From: Amphiscolops sp. MND2022
Lineage: Eukaryota
DNA length: 64,000 bases
Assembly (NCBI GenBank): GCA_964187785.1
Contig: OZ076409.1
Coordinates: 16,432,001-16,496,000, forward strand
Reading direction: 5' to 3'
Shown here: positions 37,223 through 63,638 of the stretch, in pieces
Layout of the letters: every line of letters begins with the position of its first letter
Position numbering within the stretch: position 1 is the first letter of the stretch
Notes under the pieces: generated by a model
The model's database searches: none
What the model was told of the DNA's origin: nothing
What the model saw: the letters and a program-made list of their open reading frames with translations, nothing else
Position numbers and translations under genes: made by a program

Positions 37223-37264
37223 ACTCTTTGCTTTTAGCCTAATTGTTGTGATAAACTTATTAAA
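37223..37264 (+). pseudogene. Exon part of the SL RNA gene interrupted by the retrotransposon
   Basis: Matches unit positions 159-200, then runs into element sequence with no donor. Confidence 0.75.
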
Positions 37265-37658
37265 AAGTCCTTTTAATAAGTTTGCTTGTACATCATTCGG
37301 TTAAGCAACCCATAGCTCTGTGCTATCATTCAAACTACCATTTTACAAACCCGTCGTGAAGCACCTAAGAAGCCATTCTTTCCTACGGGGGTCGCTGGCT
37401 AAGGTTTGATCTGCGTGGATATTCTTCCAACCGGCTCGTGTGTGGTCGCGTTAGTAGATCAAGCTGAGAAACCGAGACTGGTGCTTCCCAGCGTATTCGT
37501 GAGGTTGCGCTGAAGCTTTCTTGGCGGTCGGCTGGCAGGAGCCCTCAATAAACTGCCAGTTGTCCCAGCAGAGCTCTTCACAGCTGGCAGTGATAGATGC
37601 TCTGTTTCCCCCTAAAAACAAAACAACTCTTTCCCTTTTATTTCAACTGAACTAAAGA

Positions 37659-38852
37659 ATGGATTACGCAGCAGCAACAAAATCAAGCGAAACAACAGAA
37701 GACTACCTCCCCCCACTTCTGTTTGTACTTCCAATCACTAAAGAAGATTTCAACACTCCGAACGGAATTATTGACATCTTCGTTAAACTCTGTACGACAC
37801 TCTTAGCAAAACTACCATGTGAGGCTAGAACGAAAACGGTCATACAACGAGTAACATACGGATTCAAGAAATTGAAGGCAGTCAAAGTAAACTTGCCAAC
37901 TTCTTGTCAGAACGTACAAAACGAAATGCTCGGCATGGGGCTAGAATGTGGGAACAAAACGGTATGGCCGGTGCGAGACGACCGAACCTACAGATTCTAC
38001 CCGTGCAATGTCAGCATCAAGATTCAAAATGCCCTGCCCAATCTGACCAACGAAGAAATCAAGAACGAACTGAAACTACCCGAAGGCATTACTGCGAACG
38101 ACGACTTGAACTTCAAAACAGTCAGCATTGGGCCGTACATGAAAGTCTTTGATGGAACAGCGACAATCTCTGCCACTGTTCAGTCTGCCGAGCAAATGGA
38201 AGAAATGAAAAACTGGTCGCGCAAAGCTTTCTTTGAAGAAAAACAAGTTAGAAATCAAGTGACTCAGATGTATGCTCCTAACATCATGACATGTACTTTC
38301 TGTGAAAAGAAAGGCTCCTTCTACAGAGGTCATGATGACACTTGGTGCACAAAGAAAACGAAAGAAGAACGCGAACTGAAAAAAAAAGCGAAGGCGATCG
38401 AAGACGAAGGCGACGTCTTCACAGCCGACGAACAAAGTGTACACAACGAACAAATCGCAAAAATTAGAAACGACAGCTGTGCATCAACATCAAGCAGAAA
38501 TAATAAAAGACGACGCAGCACACCAAAGCGCGCCAACTCGGAAAAAAACCCACGACTCAGTGCGAGACAGCGAACCAGCCAAATACCAAAGATGAAAGCA
38601 AAAGCTCAAAATGAGAACAAACCCGAACAAAAAGAAAGTACAAGTCAAACTGCAAACAACAACAGTGATAACAATGACGAGAATGAAGAACAAGATACCA
38701 CAAGCACGAAGAACGCAGATACCGAAAACAGATTGCCGAAACCGCTGAACATGAGAGATTTTGTGGATGCAATGAATCCAATTCATCACATAGAAACAAA
38801 TGAAACAACAAACAACAACGTCAACGAAACAAACAATACGAAGACGAAATGA
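37659..38852 (+). CDS. Retrotransposon ORF1p, putative nucleic-acid-binding/gag-like protein (397 aa)
   Basis: Long ORF directly upstream of the RT ORF; knuckle-like CTFCEKKGSFYRGHDDTWC (C-x2-C-x9-H-x4-C); basic segment and low-complexity N/E/T-rich C-terminus. Confidence 0.85.
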   Translation: MDYAAATKSSETTEDYLPPLLFVLPITKEDFNTPNGIIDIFVKLCTTLLAKLPCEARTKTVIQRVTYGFKKLKAVKVNLPTSCQNVQNEMLGMGLECGNKTVWPVRDDRTYRFYPCNVSIKIQNALPNLTNEEIKNELKLPEGITANDDLNFKTVSIGPYMKVFDGTATISATVQSAEQMEEMKNWSRKAFFEEKQVRNQVTQMYAPNIMTCTFCEKKGSFYRGHDDTWCTKKTKEERELKKKAKAIEDEGDVFTADEQSVHNEQIAKIRNDSCASTSSRNNKRRRSTPKRANSEKNPRLSARQRTSQIPKMKAKAQNENKPEQKESTSQTANNNSDNNDENEEQDTTSTKNADTENRLPKPLNMRDFVDAMNPIHHIETNETTNNNVNETNNTKTK

Positions 38853-41800
38853 CGACGCCCAACATTGTTAGTTTCAATTGTAGGGGTCTTGGCAATCCCT
38901 TGAAACTCACAAGCCTAATTGCAAATACTGACATCAACAATGACGTCATTGCAATTCAAGAAACTAAAATGAAAAAACTAAAGAAAAAACATTTGAAAAT
39001 ACTCGAGTCCTACGACATGAATTACGTAATCAGCCCATGCGACAAATCAAAAGCGGGCGGCCTGCTGCTTTTGTTCAAAGCAAAACATAACGTAGAGTTG
39101 GTTACCCAAAACAAGTCTTTTCAAATTATAAAGATGTCAAACCAAGCCACTGAAACAAAGATGGCCAATGTTTACATATGCCCCAGCTGGAGTATAAGCA
39201 AAATCAATGAAGAACTTGAAGACCTGAAACTCAACTTGGAATCAAAGCATCTCAGGCATATTGAACCATGTGTAATAGTTGGTGACTTGAATTGTTTCGA
39301 TGACGTCACAAGAAACAAACATCCTCAATATGCAAAACACAAAGTTATACTGAAAGCGTTTGAAAAAATGGGCTTGATGGACATGGCAGTGAAGCTTGAG
39401 AATATCGAGAACACACACTTCGCGCCAGCCCAAAAACCATCGCGCCTGGATTATATCTTCTCAAATGTTGTGAGTCAGAAACAAGAAATCAGAACGATCA
39501 AGACATGCTTCTCAGATCACCGAATTTTGCGCCTGTCAAGCAAGCATAAGGCCGAGCAAGGTCAAAAGATCTTTAGAATGGATGACACAACTGTTGATGA
39601 AAACGTCAAAACCCTGAAAACGCTGATTTCACAAACAAATGGCTTGACCGGTGAACAGCTAGCGAATGATGCGTATCTCACAATGAAAAATGAGATTTCC
39701 AACTTTCTAAGACAAGCTAGCATATGGAGAGCAAGAAATAACAAAGACAGACTGCTCAAGGGGCCCGACGCAGAAGCTGAGCAGAATCTTGCAAAAAGAA
39801 TGCTAGCAGCAGTGAAGGTCAAATGCACTGACCTGAATGAAGGAAACTTGAAGATTGTTAAAAAGTACTGCTCTGACAATGCAAACAACCAAAGCAACGC
39901 GATCAAGAAGCTGAAAACACAGAAAGATCGAATTGTCTCAAGTGAGAATGAGATCATAGATGAAGTTACAAAGTACTACAGTAAGCTCTACGCCAACGAA
40001 CCAATTGATGAGAAGAAACAAGAGTGCCTCATCACAAACTTCAAAAAACAGATCTCTGAAGATGAAAGAGAACGTCTAACTCAGCAAATCACCCTAGACG
40101 AGATCAAAAATGCGATTGACAATCTGAACAAAGAAAGCGCGCCAGGCCCAGATGGACTAACCCCAAAACTGTTTCAAACGTTCAAGGAAGAATTCAGTCT
40201 TATGTTTCAAAAGATGTTTGAACATGCTGCAGACGGTAACAACTTACCAATGGCATTCAACCAAGCCTTCATTAGACTACTTCCGAAAAGTGGTGATCTG
40301 ACAACATTGAAGAACTGGAGACCAATAAGCCTGATCAACACTGACAGCAAGATTTTTTCAGCAGTAATTGCAAACCGAATGAAAAGTAGCCTCCGCGAAA
40401 TCATCCACCCAGATCAATGCGCATATTTGAAAGGCAGACAAATGTCAAACGCCACACTGCTACTAAAATCTCTGTGCACAAACAAAAGAATGAAAAAAAC
40501 TTTGACACTAGCTGGACTCGACTTCAGCAAAGCCTTCGACAGGGTAGATCGTTCGTACTTGCTGAAACTTATAAAACATGTGGGATTCCCTCCCAACATA
40601 TACAACATGATAGAGCAACTGTACAAAGATACACGATCTAACGTTCTAGTCAACTCCTTCATCACAAGACGAATACAGCAAGAAAGAGGAGTGAAACAAG
40701 GATGCCCAGTCTCAGCTCTTTTGTTCATCCTAGCTATTGAGCCATTGCTTGAACTACTGAGATCGTCATCGAGCCTGACTGGAATCGCAAAAGGAAAATT
40801 GAAGAAAAAAATCATTGCATATGCTGATGACGTCACAATGTTAGTTGAGAATGAAGAACAACTGAAGCAAGCAATTCAAACAGTTGAAGACTTTGGCAAA
40901 AGCACCCAATTCGCCTTGAACGCTGACAAAACGGAACAGTTTGACCTGAATCGAAGAAATGAAGATCAAAAGATCAAACTCCTCGGTTTGTATTTGTTCA
41001 GCAACCAAAAAAGTGAAAAGCAGCACTACCAGCAACAACTGATCCAAGAAAGCGAAAGAGCAAAGAAAGTGTGTAGACCATCAATGTCGATGAAAACTAA
41101 AAGTTGCGTCATGAAAGCCTTCGTAATGCCAAAAATAGTGTTCCATGCGAAAGCCTCAAACTGTGATCGAGCAACTTGGAAAAAAGTTCAACGAAACCTA
41201 AAACAAGGACTTCACAACAATAGGAGCAATCAGATTTCAGAACGCCTTCTTTTTCAAAGCACCAATGAAGGCGGTGTTGGCTTCCCATGCGTGAAGACCT
41301 ATGCAAGCACTTCTTTTCTGATGGATGTGTGGAGAGCAGTTTTCCACAATGACGATCACTTTATTGCACTCGAAATCAAAGAAGCAGTAGAAGACGAGAA
41401 AAGTTACGTTCACAGCAAACTGAAACAAATGAAAACGATAACGAAAGCGCGAGCGATAACTTTCAAGCGAGAACACATAGAGTTTGTGACAAGTGAAGGA
41501 CTAACAAAAATCCCTGCTACTTCAAAAGCAATATACGCCTTTGCAATCCGCCGACAGCATGCAGACTTCGTAGATGAAAGAATCATGAAAGCGGGATCAA
41601 AACTTCAAACAGCACCCCAACAACTTCTGTACACACTCAAAGCAATTTGGAGAAGCAACAAACTGAACCCTGTTCAACGAGACGTTTTCTATAATTTCAG
41701 TTTCAATCTTTACCGAGACAAAGTATTCCTCCATGCAGCTGGCTACAAGTCTGATGATGACTGTTTCCTTTGCGGAGCAAGTAAACAAACACATGAGCAT

Positions 41801-42016
41801 CTGATCCTAGATTGTCAAAAAACAAAGCAGATTGCTGAAACCCTTGGAATTCGCAGCATGAAAGATCTGTACCAGCAGGCAGAACAAGACACATGGAAAA
41901 AAGTGAGATTCGTAACAACTCTGCTCATATGTTCATGGACCGACAACAAGCAAGAAGTGGAACAAATGATTCACAACTTTCCCATCACTACCAAGCAAGT
42001 TGGCACAGTGGCTTAG
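38849..42016 (+). CDS. Retrotransposon ORF2p: APE-type endonuclease + reverse transcriptase + C-terminal CCHC zinc finger (1055 aa)
   Basis: APE motifs SFNCRGL, IQETK, GDLN, RLDYIF, SDH. RT motifs SAPGPDG, NWRPISL, LDFSKAFDRV, GVKQGCPVS, YADD. EGGVGFP motif and CFLCGASKQTHEHLILDC near the C-terminus, as in L1/Tx1 elements. Confidence 0.97.
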   Translation: MTTPNIVSFNCRGLGNPLKLTSLIANTDINNDVIAIQETKMKKLKKKHLKILESYDMNYVISPCDKSKAGGLLLLFKAKHNVELVTQNKSFQIIKMSNQATETKMANVYICPSWSISKINEELEDLKLNLESKHLRHIEPCVIVGDLNCFDDVTRNKHPQYAKHKVILKAFEKMGLMDMAVKLENIENTHFAPAQKPSRLDYIFSNVVSQKQEIRTIKTCFSDHRILRLSSKHKAEQGQKIFRMDDTTVDENVKTLKTLISQTNGLTGEQLANDAYLTMKNEISNFLRQASIWRARNNKDRLLKGPDAEAEQNLAKRMLAAVKVKCTDLNEGNLKIVKKYCSDNANNQSNAIKKLKTQKDRIVSSENEIIDEVTKYYSKLYANEPIDEKKQECLITNFKKQISEDERERLTQQITLDEIKNAIDNLNKESAPGPDGLTPKLFQTFKEEFSLMFQKMFEHAADGNNLPMAFNQAFIRLLPKSGDLTTLKNWRPISLINTDSKIFSAVIANRMKSSLREIIHPDQCAYLKGRQMSNATLLLKSLCTNKRMKKTLTLAGLDFSKAFDRVDRSYLLKLIKHVGFPPNIYNMIEQLYKDTRSNVLVNSFITRRIQQERGVKQGCPVSALLFILAIEPLLELLRSSSSLTGIAKGKLKKKIIAYADDVTMLVENEEQLKQAIQTVEDFGKSTQFALNADKTEQFDLNRRNEDQKIKLLGLYLFSNQKSEKQHYQQQLIQESERAKKVCRPSMSMKTKSCVMKAFVMPKIVFHAKASNCDRATWKKVQRNLKQGLHNNRSNQISERLLFQSTNEGGVGFPCVKTYASTSFLMDVWRAVFHNDDHFIALEIKEAVEDEKSYVHSKLKQMKTITKARAITFKREHIEFVTSEGLTKIPATSKAIYAFAIRRQHADFVDERIMKAGSKLQTAPQQLLYTLKAIWRSNKLNPVQRDVFYNFSFNLYRDKVFLHAAGYKSDDDCFLCGASKQTHEHLILDCQKTKQIAETLGIRSMKDLYQQAEQDTWKKVRFVTTLLICSWTDNKQEVEQMIHNFPITTKQVGTVA

Positions 42017-42107
42017 CCAAAGACCATGAGTCAAACAAACGAGGTTCGAACCTCTGACGGAACCAAGACACAAACATGAAAAAAACTCTTTTACCTTATT
42101 GTTTGAA

Positions 42108-54056: not shown

Positions 54057-54175
54057 GGCTACGACCATACCATGTTGAATGCACCGGTTCTCGTCCGATC
54101 ACCGAAGTTAAACAACATAGGGCCTGGTTAGTACTTGGATGGGAGACCGCTTGGGAACACCAGGTGTTGTAGCCT
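54057..54175 (+). rRNA. 5S rRNA
   Basis: Copy of 399-517. Confidence 0.97.
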
Positions 54176-54777
54176 TTTTTGTCAGAAATGTGGTTTAACT
54201 TCGGTGACAGTTTTGCAAAAGGGGTCAAATTGAAAAGATAGCACAAAACGGACAACGCCATCAGAAAGAGCGTCCAAAAAAACCCCCATGCTGAAATTTT
54301 CGCCGCCATCACTTGAATTTTCATTGAGTTATGTCATTTTTACTATTTTCACAAAATGTGGTTTAACTTCGGTGACAGTTTTGCAAAAGGGGTCAAAATG
54401 AACAGATAGCAAAAAACGGACAACGGCATTGGAAAGAGGGCCCAAAATTACCCCTAAAACGTGTTTTTCACACTCCTGAGTCGACTTTTGATAATACATG
54501 GAATTTCATTTTTAAGCTTACTAATTTATGCTTTTCAGCATACATTTTCGTAATAGAGTCAAAATTTTGCTTTCTCACAATTTTTCTGGAATATTTTTGT
54601 TTCATCAGATGTCAATAACTTGAAACGTCGTCTTTTCATGAGAATTTCTCCTCAAAACAAGTTGTTGGCTGGTAATGGTAAGTCCGTACCGCAGATAGGA
54701 GTCTCGCGCTCCAAAAATTGACTCTTTGCTTTTAGCCTAATTGTTGTGATAAACTTATTAAATAGGTAAGTATTCCA

Positions 54778-54873
54778 TTTTTGGAGTATATCTTGCCTGT
54801 TTGAGGTGTGAGTCGCAGCAATCATAGGTCCAAAACCAGTAACCAAAAACCAACCTGTACTTACTTGTTTGAA
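54778..54873 (+). mobile_element. 96-bp retro-insertion in SL RNA gene (5'-truncated sister LINE or SINE-like), copy 1
   Basis: Flanked by the 14-bp duplication AGGTAAGTATTCCA (54764-54777 and 54874-54887); ends TTGTTTGAA at the same host base as the full-length element. Confidence 0.85.
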
Positions 54874-55068
54874 AGGTAAGTATTCCAACCCTATTGATAA
54901 GTTTTATTTGAAAGCAGACTGCGAAAGGTCTGCTGCCCAATTTTTGAACAAGGAACAAGCTAGTCTGCACTAACTTAAAAGTTACGCGTATTTTGACCGA
55001 GAAAATTTTCGTATCATTGTACGTAATTTTGTTGTTAAGCATATAAAGCTATTGATTTTACAATGATC

Positions 55069-55187
55069 GGCTACGACCATACCATGTTGAATGCACCGGT
55101 TCTCGTCCGATCACCGAAGTTAAACAACATAGGGCCTGGTTAGTACTTGGATGGGAGACCGCTTGGGAACACCAGGTGTTGTAGCCT
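55069..55187 (+). rRNA. 5S rRNA
   Basis: Copy of 399-517. Confidence 0.97.
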
Positions 55188-55972
55188 TTTTTGTCAGAAA
55201 TGTGGTTTAACTTCGGTGACAGTTTTGCAAAAGGGGTCAAATTGAAAAGATAGCACAAAACGGACAACGCCATCAGAAAGAGCGTCCAAAAAAACCCCCA
55301 TGCTGAAATTTTCGCCGCCATCACTTGAATTTTCATTGAGTTATGTCATTTTTACTATTTTCACAAAATGTGGTTTAACTTCGGTGACAGTTTTGCAAAA
55401 GGGGTCAAAATGAACAGATAGCAAAAAACGGACAACGGCATTGGAAAGAGGGCCCAAAATTACCCCTAAAACGTGTTTTTCACACTCCTGAGTCGACTTT
55501 TGATAATACATGGAATTTCATTTTTAAGCTTACTAATTTATGCTTTTCAGCATACATTTTCGTAATAGAGTCAAAATTTTGCTTTCTCACAATTTTTCTG
55601 GAATATTTTTGTTTCATCAGATGTCAATAACTTGAAACGTCGTCTTTTCATGAGAATTTCTCCTCAAAACAAGTTGTTGGCTGGTAATGGTAAGTCCGTA
55701 CCGCAGATAGGAGTCTCGCGCTCCAAAAATTGACTCTTTGCTTTTAGCCTAATTGTTGTGATAAACTTATTAAATAGGTAAGTATTCCAACCCTATTGAT
55801 AAGTTTTATTTGAAAGCAGACTGCGAAAGTGGTCTGCTGCCCAATTTTTGAACAAGGAACAAGCTAGTCTGCACTAACTTAAAAGTTACGCGTATTTTGA
55901 CCGAGAAAATTTTCGTATCATTGTACGTAATTTTGTTGTTAAGCATATAAAGCTATTGATTTTACAATGATC

Positions 55973-56091
55973 GGCTACGACCATACCATGTTGAATGCAC
56001 CGGTTCTCGTCCGATCACCGAAGTTAAACAACATAGGGCCTGGTTAGTACTTGGATGGGAGACCGCTTGGGAACACCAGGTGTTGTAGCCT
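55973..56091 (+). rRNA. 5S rRNA
   Basis: Copy of 399-517. Confidence 0.97.
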
Positions 56092-56693
56092 TTTTTGTCA
56101 GAAATGTGGTTTAACTTCGGTGACAGTTTTGCAAAAGGGGTCAAATTGAAAAGATAGCACAAAACGGACAACGCCATCAGAAAGAGTGTCCAAAAAAACC
56201 CCCATGCTGAAATTTTCGCCGCCATCACTTGAATTTTCATTGAGTTATGTCATTTTTACTATTTTCACAAAATGTGGTTTAACTTCGGTGACAGTTTTGC
56301 AAAAGGGGTCAAAATGAACAGATAGCAAAAAACGGACAACGGCATTGGAAAGAGGGCCCAAAATTACCCCTAAAACGTGTTTTTCACACTCCTGAGTCGA
56401 CTTTTGATAATACATGGAATTTCATTTTTAAGCTTACTAATTTATGCTTTTCAGCATACATTTTCGTAATAGAGTCAAAATTTTGCTTTCTCACAATTTT
56501 TCTGGAATATTTTTGTTTCATCAGATGTCAATAACTTGAAACGTCGTCTTTTCATGAGAATTTCTCCTCAAAACAAGTTGTTGGCTGGTAATGGTAAGTC
56601 CGTACCGCAGATAGGAGTCTCGCGCTCCAAAAATTGACTCTTTGCTTTTAGCCTAATTGTTGTGATAAACTTATTAAATAGGTAAGTATTCCA

Positions 56694-56789
56694 TTTTTGG
56701 AGTATATCTTGCCTGTTTGAGGTGTGAGTCGCAGCAATCATAGGTCCAAAACCAGTAACCAAAAACCAACCTGTACTTACTTGTTTGAA
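56694..56789 (+). mobile_element. 96-bp retro-insertion in SL RNA gene, copy 2
   Basis: Same sequence and 14-bp duplication as copy 1. Confidence 0.85.
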
Positions 56790-56984
56790 AGGTAAGTATT
56801 CCAACCCTATTGATAAGTTTTATTTGAAAGCAGACTGCGAAAGGTCTGCTGCCCAATTTTTGAACAAGGAACAAGCTAGTCTGCACTAACTTAAAAGTTA
56901 CGCGTATTTTGACCGAGAAAATTTTCGTATCATTGTACGTAATTTTGTTGTTAAGCATATAAAGCTATTGATTTTACAATGATC

Positions 56985-57103
56985 GGCTACGACCATACCA
57001 TGTTGAATGCACCGGTTCTCGTCCGATCACCGAAGTTAAACAACATAGGGCCTGGTTAGTACTTGGATGGGAGACCGCTTGGGAACACCAGGTGTTGTAG
57101 CCT
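56985..57103 (+). rRNA. 5S rRNA
   Basis: Copy of 399-517. Confidence 0.97.
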
Positions 57104-57705
57104 TTTTTGTCAGAAATGTGGTTTAACTTCGGTGACAGTTTTGCAAAAGGGGTCAAATTGAAAAGATAGCACAAAACGGACAACGCCATCAGAAAGAGCG
57201 TCCAAAAAAACCCCCATGCTGAAATTTTCGCCGCCATCACTTGAATTTTCATTGAGTTATGTCATTTTTACTATTTTCACAAAATGTGGTTTAACTTCGG
57301 TGACAGTTTTGCAAAAGGGGTCAAAATGAACAGATAGCAAAAAACGGACAACGGCATTGGAAAGAGGGCCCAAAATTACCCCTAAAACGTGTTTTTCACA
57401 CTCCTGAGTCGACTTTTGATAATACATGGAATTTCATTTTTAAGCTTACTAATTTATGCTTTTCAGCATACATTTTCGTAATAGAGTCAAAATTTTGCTT
57501 TCTCACAATTTTTCTGGAATATTTTTGTTTCATCAGATGTCAATAACTTGAAACGTCGTCTTTTCATGAGAATTTCTCCTCAAAACAAGTTGTTGGCTGG
57601 TAATGGTAAGTCCGTACCGCAGATAGGAGTCTCGCGCTCCAAAAATTGACTCTTTGCTTTTAGCCTAATTGTTGTGATAAACTTATTAAATAGGTAAGTA
57701 TTCCA

Positions 57706-57801
57706 TTTTTGGAGTATATCTTGCCTGTTTGAGGTGTGAGTCGCAGCAATCATAGGTCCAAAACCAGTAACCAAAAACCAACCTGTACTTACTTGTTTGA
57801 A
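57706..57801 (+). mobile_element. 96-bp retro-insertion in SL RNA gene, copy 3
   Basis: Same sequence and 14-bp duplication as copy 1. Confidence 0.85.
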
Positions 57802-57996
57802 AGGTAAGTATTCCAACCCTATTGATAAGTTTTATTTGAAAGCAGACTGCGAAAGGTCTGCTGCCCAATTTTTGAACAAGGAACAAGCTAGTCTGCACTA
57901 ACTTAAAAGTTACGCGTATTTTGACCGAGAAAATTTTCGTATCATTGTACGTAATTTTGTTGTTAAGCATATAAAGCTATTGATTTTACAATGATC

Positions 57997-58115
57997 GGCT
58001 ACGACCATACCATGTTGAATGCACCGGTTCTCGTCCGATCACCGAAGTTAAACAACATAGGGCCTGGTTAGTACTTGGATGGGAGACCGCTTGGGAACAC
58101 CAGGTGTTGTAGCCT
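57997..58115 (+). rRNA. 5S rRNA
   Basis: Copy of 399-517. Confidence 0.97.
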
Positions 58116-58900
58116 TTTTTGTCAGAAATGTGGTTTAACTTCGGTGACAGTTTTGCAAAAGGGGTCAAATTGAAAAGATAGCACAAAACGGACAACGCCA
58201 TCAGAAAGAGCGTCCAAAAAAACCCCCATGCTGAAATTTTCGCCGCCATCACTTGAATTTTCATTGAGTTATGTCATTTTTACTATTTTCACAAAATGTG
58301 GTTTAACTTCGGTGACAGTTTTGCAAAAGGGGTCAAAATGAACAGATAGCAAAAAACGGACAACGGCATTGGAAAGAGGGCCCAAAATTACCCCTAAAAC
58401 GTGTTTTTCACACTCCTGAGTCGACTTTTGATAATACATGGAATTTCATTTTTAAGCTTACTAATTTATGCTTTTCAGCATACATTTTCGTAATAGAGTC
58501 AAAATTTTGCTTTCTCACAATTTTTCTGGAATATTTTTGTTTCATCAGATGTCAATAACTTGAAACGTCGTCTTTTCATGAGAATTTCTCCTCAAAACAA
58601 GTTGTTGGCTGGTAATGGTAAGTCCGTACCGCAGATAGGAGTCTCGCGCTCCAAAAATTGACTCTTTGCTTTTAGCCTAATTGTTGTGATAAACTTATTA
58701 AATAGGTAAGTATTCCAACCCTATTGATAAGTTTTATTTGAAAGCAGACTGCGAAAGTGGTCTGCTGCCCAATTTTTGAACAAGGAACAAGCTAGTCTGC
58801 ACTAACTTAAAAGTTACGCGTATTTTGACCGAGAAAATTTTCGTATCATTGTACGTAATTTTGTTGTTAAGCATATAAAGCTATTGATTTTACAATGATC

Positions 58901-59019
58901 GGCTACGACCATACCATGTTGAATGCACCGGTTCTCGTCCGATCACCGAAGTTAAACAACATAGGGCCTGGTTAGTACTTGGATGGGAGACCGCTTGGGA
59001 ACACCAGGTGTTGTAGCCT
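58901..59019 (+). rRNA. 5S rRNA
   Basis: Copy of 399-517. Confidence 0.97.
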
Positions 59020-59621
59020 TTTTTGTCAGAAATGTGGTTTAACTTCGGTGACAGTTTTGCAAAAGGGGTCAAATTGAAAAGATAGCACAAAACGGACAAC
59101 GCCATCAGAAAGAGCGTCCAAAAAAACCCCCATGCTGAAATTTTCGCCGCCATCACTTGAATTTTCATTGAGTTATGTCATTTTTACTATTTTCACAAAA
59201 TGTGGTTTAACTTCGGTGACAGTTTTGCAAAAGGGGTCAAAATGAACAGATAGCAAAAAACGGACAACGGCATTGGAAAGAGGGCCCAAAATTACCCCTA
59301 AAACGTGTTTTTCACACTCCTGAGTCGACTTTTGATAATACATGGAATTTCATTTTTAAGCTTACTAATTTATGCTTTTCAGCATACATTTTCGTAATAG
59401 AGTCAAAATTTTGCTTTCTCACAATTTTTCTGGAATATTTTTGTTTCATCAGATGTCAATAACTTGAAACGTCGTCTTTTCATGAGAATTTCTCCTCAAA
59501 ACAAGTTGTTGGCTGGTAATGGTAAGTCCGTACCGCAGATAGGAGTCTCGCGCTCCAAAAATTGACTCTTTGCTTTTAGCCTAATTGTTGTGATAAACTT
59601 ATTAAATAGGTAAGTATTCCA

Positions 59622-59717
59622 TTTTTGGAGTATATCTTGCCTGTTTGAGGTGTGAGTCGCAGCAATCATAGGTCCAAAACCAGTAACCAAAAACCAACCT
59701 GTACTTACTTGTTTGAA
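59622..59717 (+). mobile_element. 96-bp retro-insertion in SL RNA gene, copy 4
   Basis: Same sequence and 14-bp duplication as copy 1. Confidence 0.85.
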
Positions 59718-59912
59718 AGGTAAGTATTCCAACCCTATTGATAAGTTTTATTTGAAAGCAGACTGCGAAAGGTCTGCTGCCCAATTTTTGAACAAGGAAC
59801 AAGCTAGTCTGCACTAACTTAAAAGTTACGCGTATTTTGACCGAGAAAATTTTCGTATCATTGTACGTAATTTTGTTGTTAAGCATATAAAGCTATTGAT
59901 TTTACAATGATC

Positions 59913-60031
59913 GGCTACGACCATACCATGTTGAATGCACCGGTTCTCGTCCGATCACCGAAGTTAAACAACATAGGGCCTGGTTAGTACTTGGATGGGA
60001 GACCGCTTGGGAACACCAGGTGTTGTAGCCT
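59913..60031 (+). rRNA. 5S rRNA
   Basis: Copy of 399-517. Confidence 0.97.
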
Positions 60032-60816
60032 TTTTTGTCAGAAATGTGGTTTAACTTCGGTGACAGTTTTGCAAAAGGGGTCAAATTGAAAAGATAGCAC
60101 AAAACGGACAACGCCATCAGAAAGAGCGTCCAAAAAAACCCCCATGCTGAAATTTTCGCCGCCATCACTTGAATTTTCATTGAGTTATGTCATTTTTACT
60201 ATTTTCACAAAATGTGGTTTAACTTCGGTGACAGTTTTGCAAAAGGGGTCAAAATGAACAGATAGCAAAAAACGGACAACGGCATTGGAAAGAGGGCCCA
60301 AAATTACCCCTAAAACGTGTTTTTCACACTCCTGAGTCGACTTTTGATAATACATGGAATTTCATTTTTAAGCTTACTAATTTATGCTTTTCAGCATACA
60401 TTTTCGTAATAGAGTCAAAATTTTGCTTTCTCACAATTTTTCTGGAATATTTTTGTTTCATCAGATGTCAATAACTTGAAACGTCGTCTTTTCATGAGAA
60501 TTTCTCCTCAAAACAAGTTGTTGGCTGGTAATGGTAAGTCCGTACCGCAGATAGGAGTCTCGCGCTCCAAAAATTGACTCTTTGCTTTTAGCCTAATTGT
60601 TGTGATAAACTTATTAAATAGGTAAGTATTCCAACCCTATTGATAAGTTTTATTTGAAAGCAGACTGCGAAAGTGGTCTGCTGCCCAATTTTTGAACAAG
60701 GAACAAGCTAGTCTGCACTAACTTAAAAGTTACGCGTATTTTGACCGAGAAAATTTTCGTATCATTGTACGTAATTTTGTTGTTAAGCATATAAAGCTAT
60801 TGATTTTACAATGATC

Positions 60817-60935
60817 GGCTACGACCATACCATGTTGAATGCACCGGTTCTCGTCCGATCACCGAAGTTAAACAACATAGGGCCTGGTTAGTACTTGGAT
60901 GGGAGACCGCTTGGGAACACCAGGTGTTGTAGCCT
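60817..60935 (+). rRNA. 5S rRNA
   Basis: Copy of 399-517. Confidence 0.97.
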
Positions 60936-61720
60936 TTTTTGTCAGAAATGTGGTTTAACTTCGGTGACAGTTTTGCAAAAGGGGTCAAATTGAAAAGATA
61001 GCACAAAACGGACAACGCCATCAGAAAGAGCGTCCAAAAAAACCCCCATGCTGAAATTTTCGCCGCCATCACTTGAATTTTCATTGAGTTATGTCATTTT
61101 TACTATTTTCACAAAATGTGGTTTAACTTCGGTGACAGTTTTGCAAAAGGGGTCAAAATGAACAGATAGCAAAAAACGGACAACGGCATTGGAAAGAGGG
61201 CCCAAAATTACCCCTAAAACGTGTTTTTCACACTCCTGAGTCGACTTTTGATAATACATGGAATTTCATTTTTAAGCTTACTAATTTATGCTTTTCAGCA
61301 TACATTTTCGTAATAGAGTCAAAATTTTGCTTTCTCACAATTTTTCTGGAATATTTTTGTTTCATCAGATGTCAATAACTTGAAACGTCGTCTTTTCATG
61401 AGAATTTCTCCTCAAAACAAGTTGTTGGCTGGTAATGGTAAGTCCGTACCGCAGATAGGAGTCTCGCGCTCCAAAAATTGACTCTTTGCTTTTAGCCTAA
61501 TTGTTGTGATAAACTTATTAAATAGGTAAGTATTCCAACCCTATTGATAAGTTTTATTTGAAAGCAGACTGCGAAAGTGGTCTGCTGCCCAATTTTTGAA
61601 CAAGGAACAAGCTAGTCTGCACTAACTTAAAAGTTACGCGTATTTTGACCGAGAAAATTTTCGTATCATTGTACGTAATTTTGTTGTTAAGCATATAAAG
61701 CTATTGATTTTACAATGATC

Positions 61721-61839
61721 GGCTACGACCATACCATGTTGAATGCACCGGTTCTCGTCCGATCACCGAAGTTAAACAACATAGGGCCTGGTTAGTACTT
61801 GGATGGGAGACCGCTTGGGAACACCAGGTGTTGTAGCCT
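61721..61839 (+). rRNA. 5S rRNA
   Basis: Copy of 399-517. Confidence 0.97.
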
Positions 61840-62624
61840 TTTTTGTCAGAAATGTGGTTTAACTTCGGTGACAGTTTTGCAAAAGGGGTCAAATTGAAAA
61901 GATAGCACAAAACGGACAACGCCATCAGAAAGAGCGTCCAAAAAAACCCCCATGCTGAAATTTTCGCCGCCATCACTTGAATTTTCATTGAGTTATGTCA
62001 TTTTTACTATTTTCACAAAATGTGGTTTAACTTCGGTGACAGTTTTGCAAAAGGGGTCAAAATGAACAGATAGCAAAAAACGGACAACGGCATTGGAAAG
62101 AGGGCCCAAAATTACCCCTAAAACGTGTTTTTCACACTCCTGAGTCGACTTTTGATAATACATGGAATTTCATTTTTAAGCTTACTAATTTATGCTTTTC
62201 AGCATACATTTTCGTAATAGAGTCAAAATTTTGCTTTCTCACAATTTTTCTGGAATATTTTTGTTTCATCAGATGTCAATAACTTGAAACGTCGTCTTTT
62301 CATGAGAATTTCTCCTCAAAACAAGTTGTTGGCTGGTAATGGTAAGTCCGTACCGCAGATAGGAGTCTCGCGCTCCAAAAATTGACTCTTTGCTTTTAGC
62401 CTAATTGTTGTGATAAACTTATTAAATAGGTAAGTATTCCAACCCTATTGATAAGTTTTATTTGAAAGCAGACTGCGAAAGTGGTCTGCTGCCCAATTTT
62501 TGAACAAGGAACAAGCTAGTCTGCACTAACTTAAAAGTTACGCGTATTTTGACCGAGAAAATTTTCGTATCATTGTACGTAATTTTGTTGTTAAGCATAT
62601 AAAGCTATTGATTTTACAATGATC

Positions 62625-62743
62625 GGCTACGACCATACCATGTTGAATGCACCGGTTCTCGTCCGATCACCGAAGTTAAACAACATAGGGCCTGGTTAGT
62701 ACTTGGATGGGAGACCGCTTGGGAACACCAGGTGTTGTAGCCT
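62625..62743 (+). rRNA. 5S rRNA
   Basis: Copy of 399-517. Confidence 0.97.
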
Positions 62744-63345
62744 TTTTTGTCAGAAATGTGGTTTAACTTCGGTGACAGTTTTGCAAAAGGGGTCAAATTG
62801 AAAAGATAGCACAAAACGGACAACGCCATCAGAAAGAGCGTCCAAAAAAACCCCCATGCTGAAATTTTCGCCGCCATCACTTGAATTTTCATTGAGTTAT
62901 GTCATTTTTACTATTTTCACAAAATGTGGTTTAACTTCGGTGACAGTTTTGCAAAAGGGGTCAAAATGAACAGATAGCAAAAAACGGACAACGGCATTGG
63001 AAAGAGGGCCCAAAATTACCCCTAAAACGTGTTTTTCACACTCCTGAGTCGACTTTTGATAATACATGGAATTTCATTTTTAAGCTTACTAATTTATGCT
63101 TTTCAGCATACATTTTCGTAATAGAGTCAAAATTTTGCTTTCTCACAATTTTTCTGGAATATTTTTGTTTCATCAGATGTCAATAACTTGAAACGTCGTC
63201 TTTTCATGAGAATTTCTCCTCAAAACAAGTTGTTGGCTGGTAATGGTAAGTCCGTACCGCAGATAGGAGTCTCGCGCTCCAAAAATTGACTCTTTGCTTT
63301 TAGCCTAATTGTTGTGATAAACTTATTAAATAGGTAAGTATTCCA

Positions 63346-63441
63346 TTTTTGGAGTATATCTTGCCTGTTTGAGGTGTGAGTCGCAGCAATCATAGGTCCA
63401 AAACCAGTAACCAAAAACCAACCTGTACTTACTTGTTTGAA
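63346..63441 (+). mobile_element. 96-bp retro-insertion in SL RNA gene, copy 5 (no linked 2-bp deletion)
   Basis: Same insert and duplication; downstream stem-loop II is wild type. Confidence 0.85.
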
Positions 63442-63638
63442 AGGTAAGTATTCCAACCCTATTGATAAGTTTTATTTGAAAGCAGACTGCGAAAGTGGTC
63501 TGCTGCCCAATTTTTGAACAAGGAACAAGCTAGTCTGCACTAACTTAAAAGTTACGCGTATTTTGACCGAGAAAATTTTCGTATCATTGTACGTAATTTT
63601 GTTGTTAAGCATATAAAGCTATTGATTTTACAATGATC

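Follow-up and report, generated by a model that had tools for sequence, protein, structure and literature searches.

A 96-bp insert in spliced-leader RNA genes of Amphiscolops that may ride the host promoter by hiding splice signals through RNA folding

Five identical 96-bp inserts interrupt spliced-leader (SL) RNA genes in the window, i.e., the whole 64,000-nucleotide stretch of Amphiscolops contig OZ076409.1 that was analysed. Each consists of a 4-nt loop, a 48-nt arm antisense to the leader and a 44-nt tail that resembles the 3' end of a LINE. Judged from its modelled fold, the insert may be a tiny genetic parasite that rides the SL promoter of its host by hiding splice signals through RNA folding. 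We favour, at about even chances, the reading that it arose as a twin-priming chimera of SL-antisense sequence and LINE tail, and that it persists as a SIDE-like, non-autonomous element driven by the SL promoter, a passenger of an SL-targeting L1-group LINE lineage.

The interrupted SL genes and the duplication

The tandem array is built of a 904-bp SL-RNA/5S unit, with 65 5S genes in the window. Of the 65 SL sites, 59 are empty, five contain the 96-bp insert and one contains the LINE. A preliminary description had listed five identical inserts with a 14-bp duplication, and an exact-match search confirmed all five coordinates (54778-54873, 56694-56789, 57706-57801, 59622-59717 and 63346-63441, all on the + strand). 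The 96-mers are identical, and the same 14-mer stands on either side of each. The target had been taken to be an SL gene, and this was borne out: the 31-nt SL exon of the gene interrupted by copy 1 (54735-54765, +; donor GT next, at 54766) matches the opening 31 nt of the acoel leader printed in PMC9911081 without a difference.

The left copy of the duplication (54764-54777, +) comprises SL nt 30-43 and contains the upstream donor, and the right copy (54874-54887, +) contains the downstream donor. In empty SL units the 14-mer is present once. Since the match breaks off at the next base on each side, the duplication cannot be longer than 14 bp. The insert and the LINE have the same 3' junction, as had been claimed before, and the terminal 9 nt in common; this 9-mer occurs at six places in the window, every one an insert or LINE junction. 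The duplication had also been read as a second-strand cut about 13-14 nt downstream of the first nick. That reading is weakened, since the adjoining LINE lies at the same site without a duplication and the 14 bp therefore need not report the position of a cut.

The five filled units fall within 10 of the 65 array positions (93 of 100000 permutations). A stretch of SL stem II downstream of copy 1 (54921-54932, +) has a 2-bp deletion, by which the stem is shortened but not lost. The same deletion is found at 56837, 57849 and 59765; it is thus linked to four of the five filled units (copy 5, at 63346-63441, being without it) and occurs in 0 of the 61 remaining units. Because the filled units are clustered and the deletion is linked to them, the five copies are probably one insertion multiplied by array recombination or unequal exchange. 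The identical 5' junctions, from which a single insertion had been argued earlier, are no proof of it, since with an RNA carrying SL nt 1-43 every new insertion would end up with an identical junction. Neither the linked deletion nor the antisense arm to SL nt 1-43 had appeared in the preliminary description. Further into the SL intron lies an Sm-site-like word (54939-54947, +).

Antisense arm, LINE-like tail and predicted fold

The insert begins with a 4-nt T loop of the hairpin (54778-54781, +), where the junction also spells an Sm-like word (SL nt 43-50). The arm that follows (54782-54829, +; insert nt 5-52) is a degenerate reverse complement of SL nt 1-43, with 30/43 positions identical, 13 substitutions and bulges of 3 and 2 nt. 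It starts 4 nt past the junction, exactly at SL nt 43, where the duplication ends. The arm end at SL +1 is not sharp, as U-rich bases upstream can pair with the A-rich tail. By plain identity, its score was matched by 4 of 5000 shuffles. The predicted duplex with the SL has 38 pairs, eight of them G·U, and its energy for the SL-sense strand is -43.7, against -18.3 for the opposite strand (0 of 2000 shuffles). When the 5' half of the insert was compared with the LINE 5' end, the alignment score was 25, a level that shuffles reached in like-sized tests.

Nine of the 13 arm substitutions (eight A>G and one C>T) preserve pairing as G·U on the SL-sense strand but not on the other, and no G>A or T>C substitution is present. 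Transitions that keep pairing number nine for the sense strand and none for the opposite strand (p=0.004). The gap placement under these counts is that of the fold; an identity-only alignment likewise gives eight A>G. When sequences were mutated at random to equal divergence, 0, 1 and 6 of 3000 runs attained the duplex energy, and 0, 0 and 1 of 3000 the strand asymmetry. Such retention of wobble pairs on the sense strand alone points to an RNA-level history of the arm, either structure selection or A-to-I edits made permanent through reverse transcription.

The tail (54830-54873, +; no poly(A)) runs colinear to the final 45 nt of the LINE 3' UTR, being nearly gap-free and identical at 29/45 positions. 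None of the 4701 background windows (0 of 4701) attained its 3'-anchored score; when the terminal 9 nt were left off, 78 of 4710 did as well as the tail. On this count, and with the tail 35% diverged from the resident LINE, a sister family may be the true partner. Colinear patches shared with the LINE had been reported previously. All of them exist and the terminal 9-mer is specific, but the internal patches are not above chance: the number of 6-mers that the insert shares with the LINE 3' end, three, is matched by 1471 of 4635 LINE windows, and the TGAGTC and AGGT patches fall in the antisense arm, not above background. When the 96-mer was aligned to 42017-42107 under eight scoring set-ups, 5-69 of 2000 shuffled controls reached its score; with the terminal 9 nt cut off, the figure rose to 157-775 of 2000. 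Whole-length homology to the LINE 3' UTR was rejected on this loss of significance. What stands of a LINE derivation is the 3' 44 nt; the 5' half copies the target in antisense.

The leader-insert co-transcript has a predicted fold of -68.0 (0 of 1000 insert shuffles), in which both splice donors are paired, at 0.99 and 1.0 (0 of 200 shuffles), compared with 0.34 for the empty SL. The hairpin is weak as DNA (-11.9 versus -41.2 as RNA). Within the tail, an anti-donor motif (54857-54866, +) is the predicted pairing partner of the downstream donor (54874-54883), at -9.6 kcal/mol and with moderate significance (68 of 5000 shuffles; 52 of 4818 LINE windows). Donor masking by the LINE's own tail was considered as well and rejected for want of significance, as 675 of 5000 shuffles and 997 of 4818 windows did equally well (paired fraction 0.57), so that donor masking is not established as general. 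The insert would be co-transcribed with the SL gene, for which the strand-specific pairing is indirect support.

The insert contains no tRNA, no Rfam match close to the gathering score, no A or B box by pattern matching and no Pol III head. For a self-cleaving ribozyme, no Rfam ribozyme match was obtained and a crude hammerhead-core pattern was absent. It shares with SINEs a 3' tail in common with a LINE, and to that extent the label of a SINE-like partner, proposed earlier, was apt; it fits loosely, and without a Pol III head SIDE-like is the closer label.

The LINE at the same site

The putative partner is a full-length LINE of the L1 group at the same SL 3' junction (37265-42107, +; no poly(A)). 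It comprises ORF1 (37659-38852, +), an APE-RT ORF2 (38849-42016, +) and a 91-nt 3' UTR (42017-42107, +). Two ORFs, with an ORF2 made up of APE, RT and a C-terminal zinc motif, place it in the L1 group. The Pfam domains of ORF2 are Exo_endo_phos, RVT_1 and a weak zf-RVT, and its best PDB match is L1 ORF2p (E 9e-137). ORF1 matched no Pfam family, and its Atlas matches, all under 0.9, are leads only. The N-terminal APE domain does not fit a CRE/NeSL identity, for which a restriction-like endonuclease after the RT and no APE would be expected. In a quick, unfinished RT tree, the set for which had no named Tx1 reference, the LINE fell in its own 20-row clade (SH-aLRT 99), apart from the 5S-inserted L081 and L082.

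The LINE was inserted without a target duplication, at least 1 nt being deleted. At its 5' junction (37253-37283, +) there is a perfect 13-bp inverted repeat with the 3' part of the SL exon, the donor being absent, and the junction resembles the 3' strand of the host SL stem-I (13/15). The ORF2 cluster has 48 members, with identities of 94-99.9% among the 15 listed. From so large and closely matching a cluster, the partner LINE looks active. Among the 151 fetched loci, with 3' ends inspected for the top 22, the ORF2 relatives were all distant, their best segments being 19-41% identical, and blastn of these loci with the insert, the SL gene and the LINE ends gave nothing below E 0.05. No relatives of the LINE were found in viral contigs. 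For the insert, the junction pattern had 0 matches in metagenome contigs, and two patterns had 0 in viral contigs.

Related systems and the origin of the insert

SIDEs (PMC3414825) resemble the insert in being short and non-coding, in occupying the site of a partner within a multicopy RNA gene and in having a partner-like 3' end that can be patchily conserved. No SL-antisense retro-insert was described among the papers that the literature searches listed. SIDEs co-transcribed with the host gene are a precedent; they rely on this co-transcription, whereas for the insert we only infer it. The host gene of the insert, unlike that of SIDEs, is SL RNA and its partner is of the L1 group. The SIDE 5' end is an R2 HDV-like ribozyme obtained by internal deletion, whereas the 5' half of the insert is antisense host target rather than an autonomous element's 5' end. 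That hybrid SIDEs also have 14-bp duplications is a coincidence of length.

Antisense chimeras of small RNAs and LINE-1 (5S nt 1-45, tRNA halves nt 1-37, U5) are ascribed to twin priming in bioRxiv 10.1101/2025.02.02.635956. They resemble the insert in having an antisense 5' fragment, its start joined to the LINE 3' end, and a duplication of similar length. Those chimeras are dispersed, however, and the U6 ones are described there as not self-propagating. In the insert, what was captured is a transcript of the target gene itself, which lets a hairpin form, and the arm has a strand-specific wobble signature, unlike those chimeras. Nor do the parts of the insert match a donor as of the date of insertion: the arm stands at 30/43, the tail at 29/45, and the flanks equal the array consensus. 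The SL-targeting non-LTR elements CRE/SLACS/CZAR and NeSL, for which co-transcription has been proposed, share spliced-leader gene targets with the partner LINE, CRE making duplications and NeSL deletions. These encode a restriction-like endonuclease (PMC3636483, PMC4640811); the LINE recorded here at an SL site is an APE-type element of the L1 group. In R2, upstream 28S sequence in the element RNA leads to uniform 5' junctions (PMC3774820); the likeness to the insert is host sequence at the RNA 5' end, the enzyme class and target being different.

In the reading that we favour, a bottom-strand nick would have primed about 44 nt of LINE tail in one TPRT event, while the top strand, ending at SL nt 43, would have primed on SL-containing RNA (twin priming) or folded back, giving the inverted leader. 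The SL promoter would transcribe leader, insert and SL intron. By pairing over about 38 bp, the arm would then cover the entire leader together with the first donor, while the tail would pair with the second; in this way, we propose, the RNA is spared from trans-splicing. Recognised through its tail by the LINE protein, the RNA would be re-inserted at the SL site, the leader at its 5' end rebuilding an identical junction. The arm would have diverged by wobble-keeping substitutions under RNA-structure selection, possibly helped by A-to-I editing fixed by reverse transcription, and the five copies would be one insertion multiplied by unequal exchange. Against this passenger reading, there is one sequence and probably one event, and young flanks are also what gene conversion can produce around an insert that is old and immobile. 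More tentatively, and with clear doubt, we consider a promoterless retro-parasite made from an antisense copy of its target. It would borrow the SL promoter and cap, fold over the leader and both donors and avoid trans-splicing; its arm would be ratcheted by editing and structure selection, and its sense arm refreshed by the host at each insertion. The partner would be an APE-type, L1-group, SL-targeting lineage whose 5' end is also folded onto the leader.

If an element of this kind is real, a non-autonomous retroelement would be possible without internal promoter or ribozyme, and antisense capture of a host RNA gene would silence its processing signals in cis. Since about 30% of genes undergo SL trans-splicing in the acoel with this leader (PMC9911081), insert-derived antisense-to-leader RNA could also act in trans. 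The insert is a short substrate for asking how SL-gene elements are expressed without trans-splicing, and it bears on the second-strand cut position of a target-specific APE element and on whether A-to-I editing enters genomes via retrotransposition.

The insert might instead come from a diverged sister LINE by 5' truncation. The 3' UTR of that LINE would have had an SL-antisense arm pairing with the leader (long-range) or with target DNA; reverse transcription would have stopped at the arm edge, and the 14 bp would be a true duplication. The insert (96 nt) is similar in length to the LINE 3' UTR (91 nt), a diverged tail is what a sister family should show, there are sister ORF2s at 25-44% identity, and some members of the ORF2 cluster are C-terminal pieces, which fits 5' truncation. 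In addition, with the upstream SL absent, the arm is able to pair with the downstream SL copy. In context, however, it pairs upstream (0.78) and not downstream (0.0), and the truncation would have to hit the register of SL nt 43, 4 nt past the junction. Moreover, only the last 44 nt are above background against the resident LINE, whose 3' UTR has no SL-complementary arm (551 of 932 windows pair as well). We therefore regard this origin as unlikely.

Ranking behind it, also unlikely, is a short-lived chimera, in which a once-perfect fold-back was hyper-edited by ADAR in a co-transcript and went back into the array on one or a few occasions; its wobble bias would be an editing scar without selected function. 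A was changed to G at 8 of 16 arm positions, compared with C to T at 1 of 7. ADAR editing is expected to favour A with a 5' U, and such A were changed in 5 of 7 cases versus 3 of 9 for other A; the tail is without an A>G bias (1 of 16 differences). Both biases are non-significant (Fisher p=0.18 and p=0.31, respectively), and the four non-wobble substitutions and two bulges require extra mutation. The sense arm has no edits, though the target could reset it.

It is improbable that an old immobile fold-back, kept by gene conversion, is now a host-selected capped hairpin RNA (e.g., a small-RNA source or an SL sponge). The apparent constraint on strand-specific RNA structure would agree with this, and homogenised arrays can refresh flanks; but the LINE-like tail is kept, with exact terminal identity at the LINE junction, and one block in 5 of 65 units is unlike a fixed host gene class. 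Lastly, copy number and order in long arrays are prone to mis-assembly, but chance resemblance or an assembly artefact is very improbable, as five identical copies were found, four with the linked deletion, the degenerate inversion is unlike a library fold-back, and every shuffle test of the arm lay far outside background.

Arrangement of the array and of the insert copies

A 904-bp unit is repeated in tandem across the window, with 65 5S rRNA genes, and 59 plain units vary at three single positions. The spacer after each 5S gene contains two copies of a ~45-bp direct repeat (54188–54410, and in every unit). Every unit also carries a spliced leader (SL) gene, which was unrecognised in the Rfam search; downstream of its exon are a donor, two stems and what we take, from the Sm consensus, to be an Sm-like word. 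The 31-nt exon matches, base for base, the opening 31 nt of the spliced leader published for Symsagittifera roscoffensis (PMC9911081 and preprint, accessible portions), so the host is probably this acoel or one closely related to it. The leader as printed in PMC9911081 is one base longer, and the gene has the intron's G there; the accessible supplement of that paper gives repeat-class totals only.

The five identical 96-bp inserts of the preliminary description were confirmed (54778–54873, 56694–56789, 57706–57801, 59622–59717 and 63346–63441), each between two copies of a 14-mer (SL nt 30–43) that holds the splice donor. Four of the five filled units, and none of the 61 others, have lost 2 bp from SL stem II. 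The filled units span only 10 of 65 positions (93 of 100 000 permutations; the array is cut by the window edge). The simplest reading is one insertion amplified by unequal exchange. Filled (S) and empty units at 54057–60816 follow the order S.SS.S, which looks like tandem duplication of a three-unit block. Two single-base variants are clustered too, earlier in the array.

The antisense arm

The insert comprises a 4-nt loop, an arm (54782–54829, first copy) and a 44-nt tail (54830–54873). The filled allele folds into a long hairpin (z −5.7; 0/200 shuffles). When the upstream flank was reverse-complemented and compared with the insert by identity alone, only 4 of 5000 shuffles aligned as well. 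The arm duplex was −43.7 kcal/mol on the SL-sense strand vs −18.3 on the opposite strand, and none of 2000 shuffles was as good. Its helix of 38 pairs (8 G·U) spans SL nt 1–43 and encloses the loop; among 52-nt windows of the unit or the LINE, none pairs better than −23.9, the SL gene's own minus strand excepted. Judged by sequence, the 5′ half of the insert is antisense to its target. The minimum-free-energy helix ends at the published +1, but this end point is not sharp, because the ensemble also allows the A-rich tail to pair with U-rich sequence further upstream.

The arm is identical to a perfect antisense at 30 of 43 positions. The 13 substitutions are eight A>G, one C>T and four others, with G>A and T>C absent (strand bias, p = 0.004); the wobble-compatible share gave p = 0.00006–0.014, by the transition rate assumed. 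Gaps were set from the fold, which biases the comparison toward this result; an identity-only alignment likewise gave eight A>G. Under simulated random mutation at equal divergence, the observed duplex energy was reached in 0, 1 and 6 of 3000 runs and the strand asymmetry in 0, 0 and 1 of 3000. The hairpin is −11.9 as DNA vs −41.2 as RNA. We infer that the arm was shaped as a sense-strand RNA starting in the SL gene, by pairing selection or by A-to-I editing and reverse transcription.

The predicted RNA of leader, insert and intron was −68.0 (0/1000 insert shuffles), with both GUAAGU words paired (0.99 and 1.0; 0/200 shuffles), compared with 0.34 for the empty SL gene. The downstream donor helix alone is moderate (68/5000 shuffles; 52/4818 windows), and the LINE's equivalent was not significant (675/5000; 997/4818). 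From the fold and the helix statistics, donor masking is predicted for the insert and is not supported for the LINE 3′ end. The 5′ junction of the insert (54777–54784) makes an Sm-site-like word 12 nt past the first donor, in the hairpin loop of the predicted fold.

The tail and the resident LINE

A two-ORF LINE (37265–42107) with APE and RT domains lies inside one SL gene; its best solved relative is L1 ORF2p. Its ORF2 belongs to a 48-member cluster, and the 94–99.9% identity among 15 listed members (7 of these full length) suggests, at sequence level, a recently active lineage. A quick 64-row RT tree placed it in a clade of 20 rows (SH-aLRT 99) that excludes two fetched loci with distant L1-group elements, L081:4238–4560 and L082:2649–2850. 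The latter have poly(A) tails, lie within 5S rRNA genes and are Mutsu-like; their contigs, filed as bacterial MAGs, are probably animal host contamination. ORF1 (37659–38852) is without a Pfam match; its Cys/His cluster near residues 212–231 may be a degenerate zinc knuckle, and among its Atlas leads below 0.9 are CCHC and ZCCHC3-like clusters. A sister ORF2 on record, 29–33% identical (entries P0021 and P0121–P0126), sits on a contig as long as those of several copies of the LINE, a hint of sister LINE families within one assembly. In the LINE 3′ UTR, a small hairpin (42040–42053) holds what we take to be a tRNA B-box-like word (match at 42044), absent from the insert. The LINE is intact, without poly(A), and sits at the SL splice donor. 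As an APE-type L1-group element it differs from the named SL-targeting elements, which in the accessible portions of PMC3636483, PMC4640811 and PMC8869645 belong to the CRE and NeSL types and encode restriction-like endonucleases.

Insert and LINE have their 3′ junction and last 9 nt in common, and within the window the terminal 9-mer occurs only at these six junctions. The whole 96-mer aligned with the 3′ UTR (42017–42107) better than most shuffles, its score being reached by 5–69 of 2000 (eight scoring set-ups), but the signal was gone without the last 9 nt (157–775/2000) or the last 21 nt (276–794/2000). The insert's last 44 nt and the LINE's last 45 nt are 29/45 identical, nearly gap-free; none of 4701 LINE windows attained the 3′-anchored score, and 78 of 4710 did so once the last 9 nt were left out. 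By these alignments, LINE-like sequence is limited to the tail. Of the colinear patches described earlier, the terminal stretch stands within the 44-nt tail, while TGAGTC and AGGT (insert nt 32–52) fall in the part of other origin; shared 6-mers are at background level (1471/4635 windows).

No duplication flanks the LINE; one or more bases are lost, and there is no upstream donor. Its first bases and the SL exon form a perfect 13-bp inverted repeat (37253–37283), matched in 23/5000 shuffles by identity alignment and 24/2000 as a duplex. The LINE 5′ end also resembles the 3′ strand of host SL stem I (13/15) and looks like a donor-less remake of stem-loop I; its mRNA may begin with the host leader yet escape trans-splicing. 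The 5′ ends of insert and LINE both fold back on the leader, through different sequences, which suggests co-transcription of both from the SL promoter.

In R2, host sequence remaining at the RNA 5′ end gives uniform junctions (PMC3774820, accessible portion). If such junctions apply here, the 14 bp need not mark today's second-strand cut, and identical junctions are no proof of a single event. The duplication had been read as that cut site; the arm begins exactly at nt 43, as twin priming from a top-strand end there would give, whereas the LINE without a duplication and R2-type templating, if it applies, weaken that reading. Similarly, identical 5′ junctions as a sign of one insertion agree with the clustered units and the linked deletion, but an R2-type RNA would repeat the junction.

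Origin of the insert

The insert is real and more structured than at first described: a chimera of target antisense and LINE tail that bears a signature at the RNA level. The likeliest reading, which we put at an even chance, is that ~44 nt of LINE tail became linked to antisense SL nt 43–1 through twin priming or fold-back, and that the chimera was then kept as a SIDE-like passenger, riding on its partner LINE and on host-gene transcription. Chimeras that join antisense 5S(1–45) or tRNA halves to L1, and that have been attributed to twin priming, are of the same form (bioRxiv 10.1101/2025.02.02.635956, accessible portion), and co-transcribed SIDEs resemble the proposed cycle in lifestyle (PMC3414825, accessible portion). 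The insert is classed as neither SIDE nor SINE, because neither a LINE-derived 5′ end nor a Pol III head was found by alignment to the LINE 5′ end and by tRNA, Rfam and A/B-box searches. No relatives were found among metagenome and viral contig patterns or by blastn of 151 fetched loci. No such element is reported in the literature searched, and the novelty is provisional because this coverage was partial, most subscription journals and repeat-database reports being outside its scope; the accessible portion of PMC12220107 is relevant solely to trans-spliced TE transcripts.

The earlier proposal of a truncated sister LINE or SINE-like partner agrees with the LINE-like tail, but not with the antisense 5′ half or the missing Pol III head; a truncated sister LINE with the antisense arm in its UTR is unlikely. 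A short-lived edited chimera, slightly less probable still, would draw on the A>G excess, but neither A>G vs C>T (8/16 vs 1/7, p = 0.18) nor 5′-U context (p = 0.31) separates selection from editing. Retention of the hairpin by the host would fit the strand-specific RNA structure but not the LINE-like tail, and is improbable. An artefact is hardly credible given five identical copies.

In the chimera, arm and tail differ by 30–35% from the sequences that they apparently derive from, whereas the flanks equal the array consensus. This argues, from sequence comparison, for a history before the present insertion, although gene conversion could renew the flanks too.
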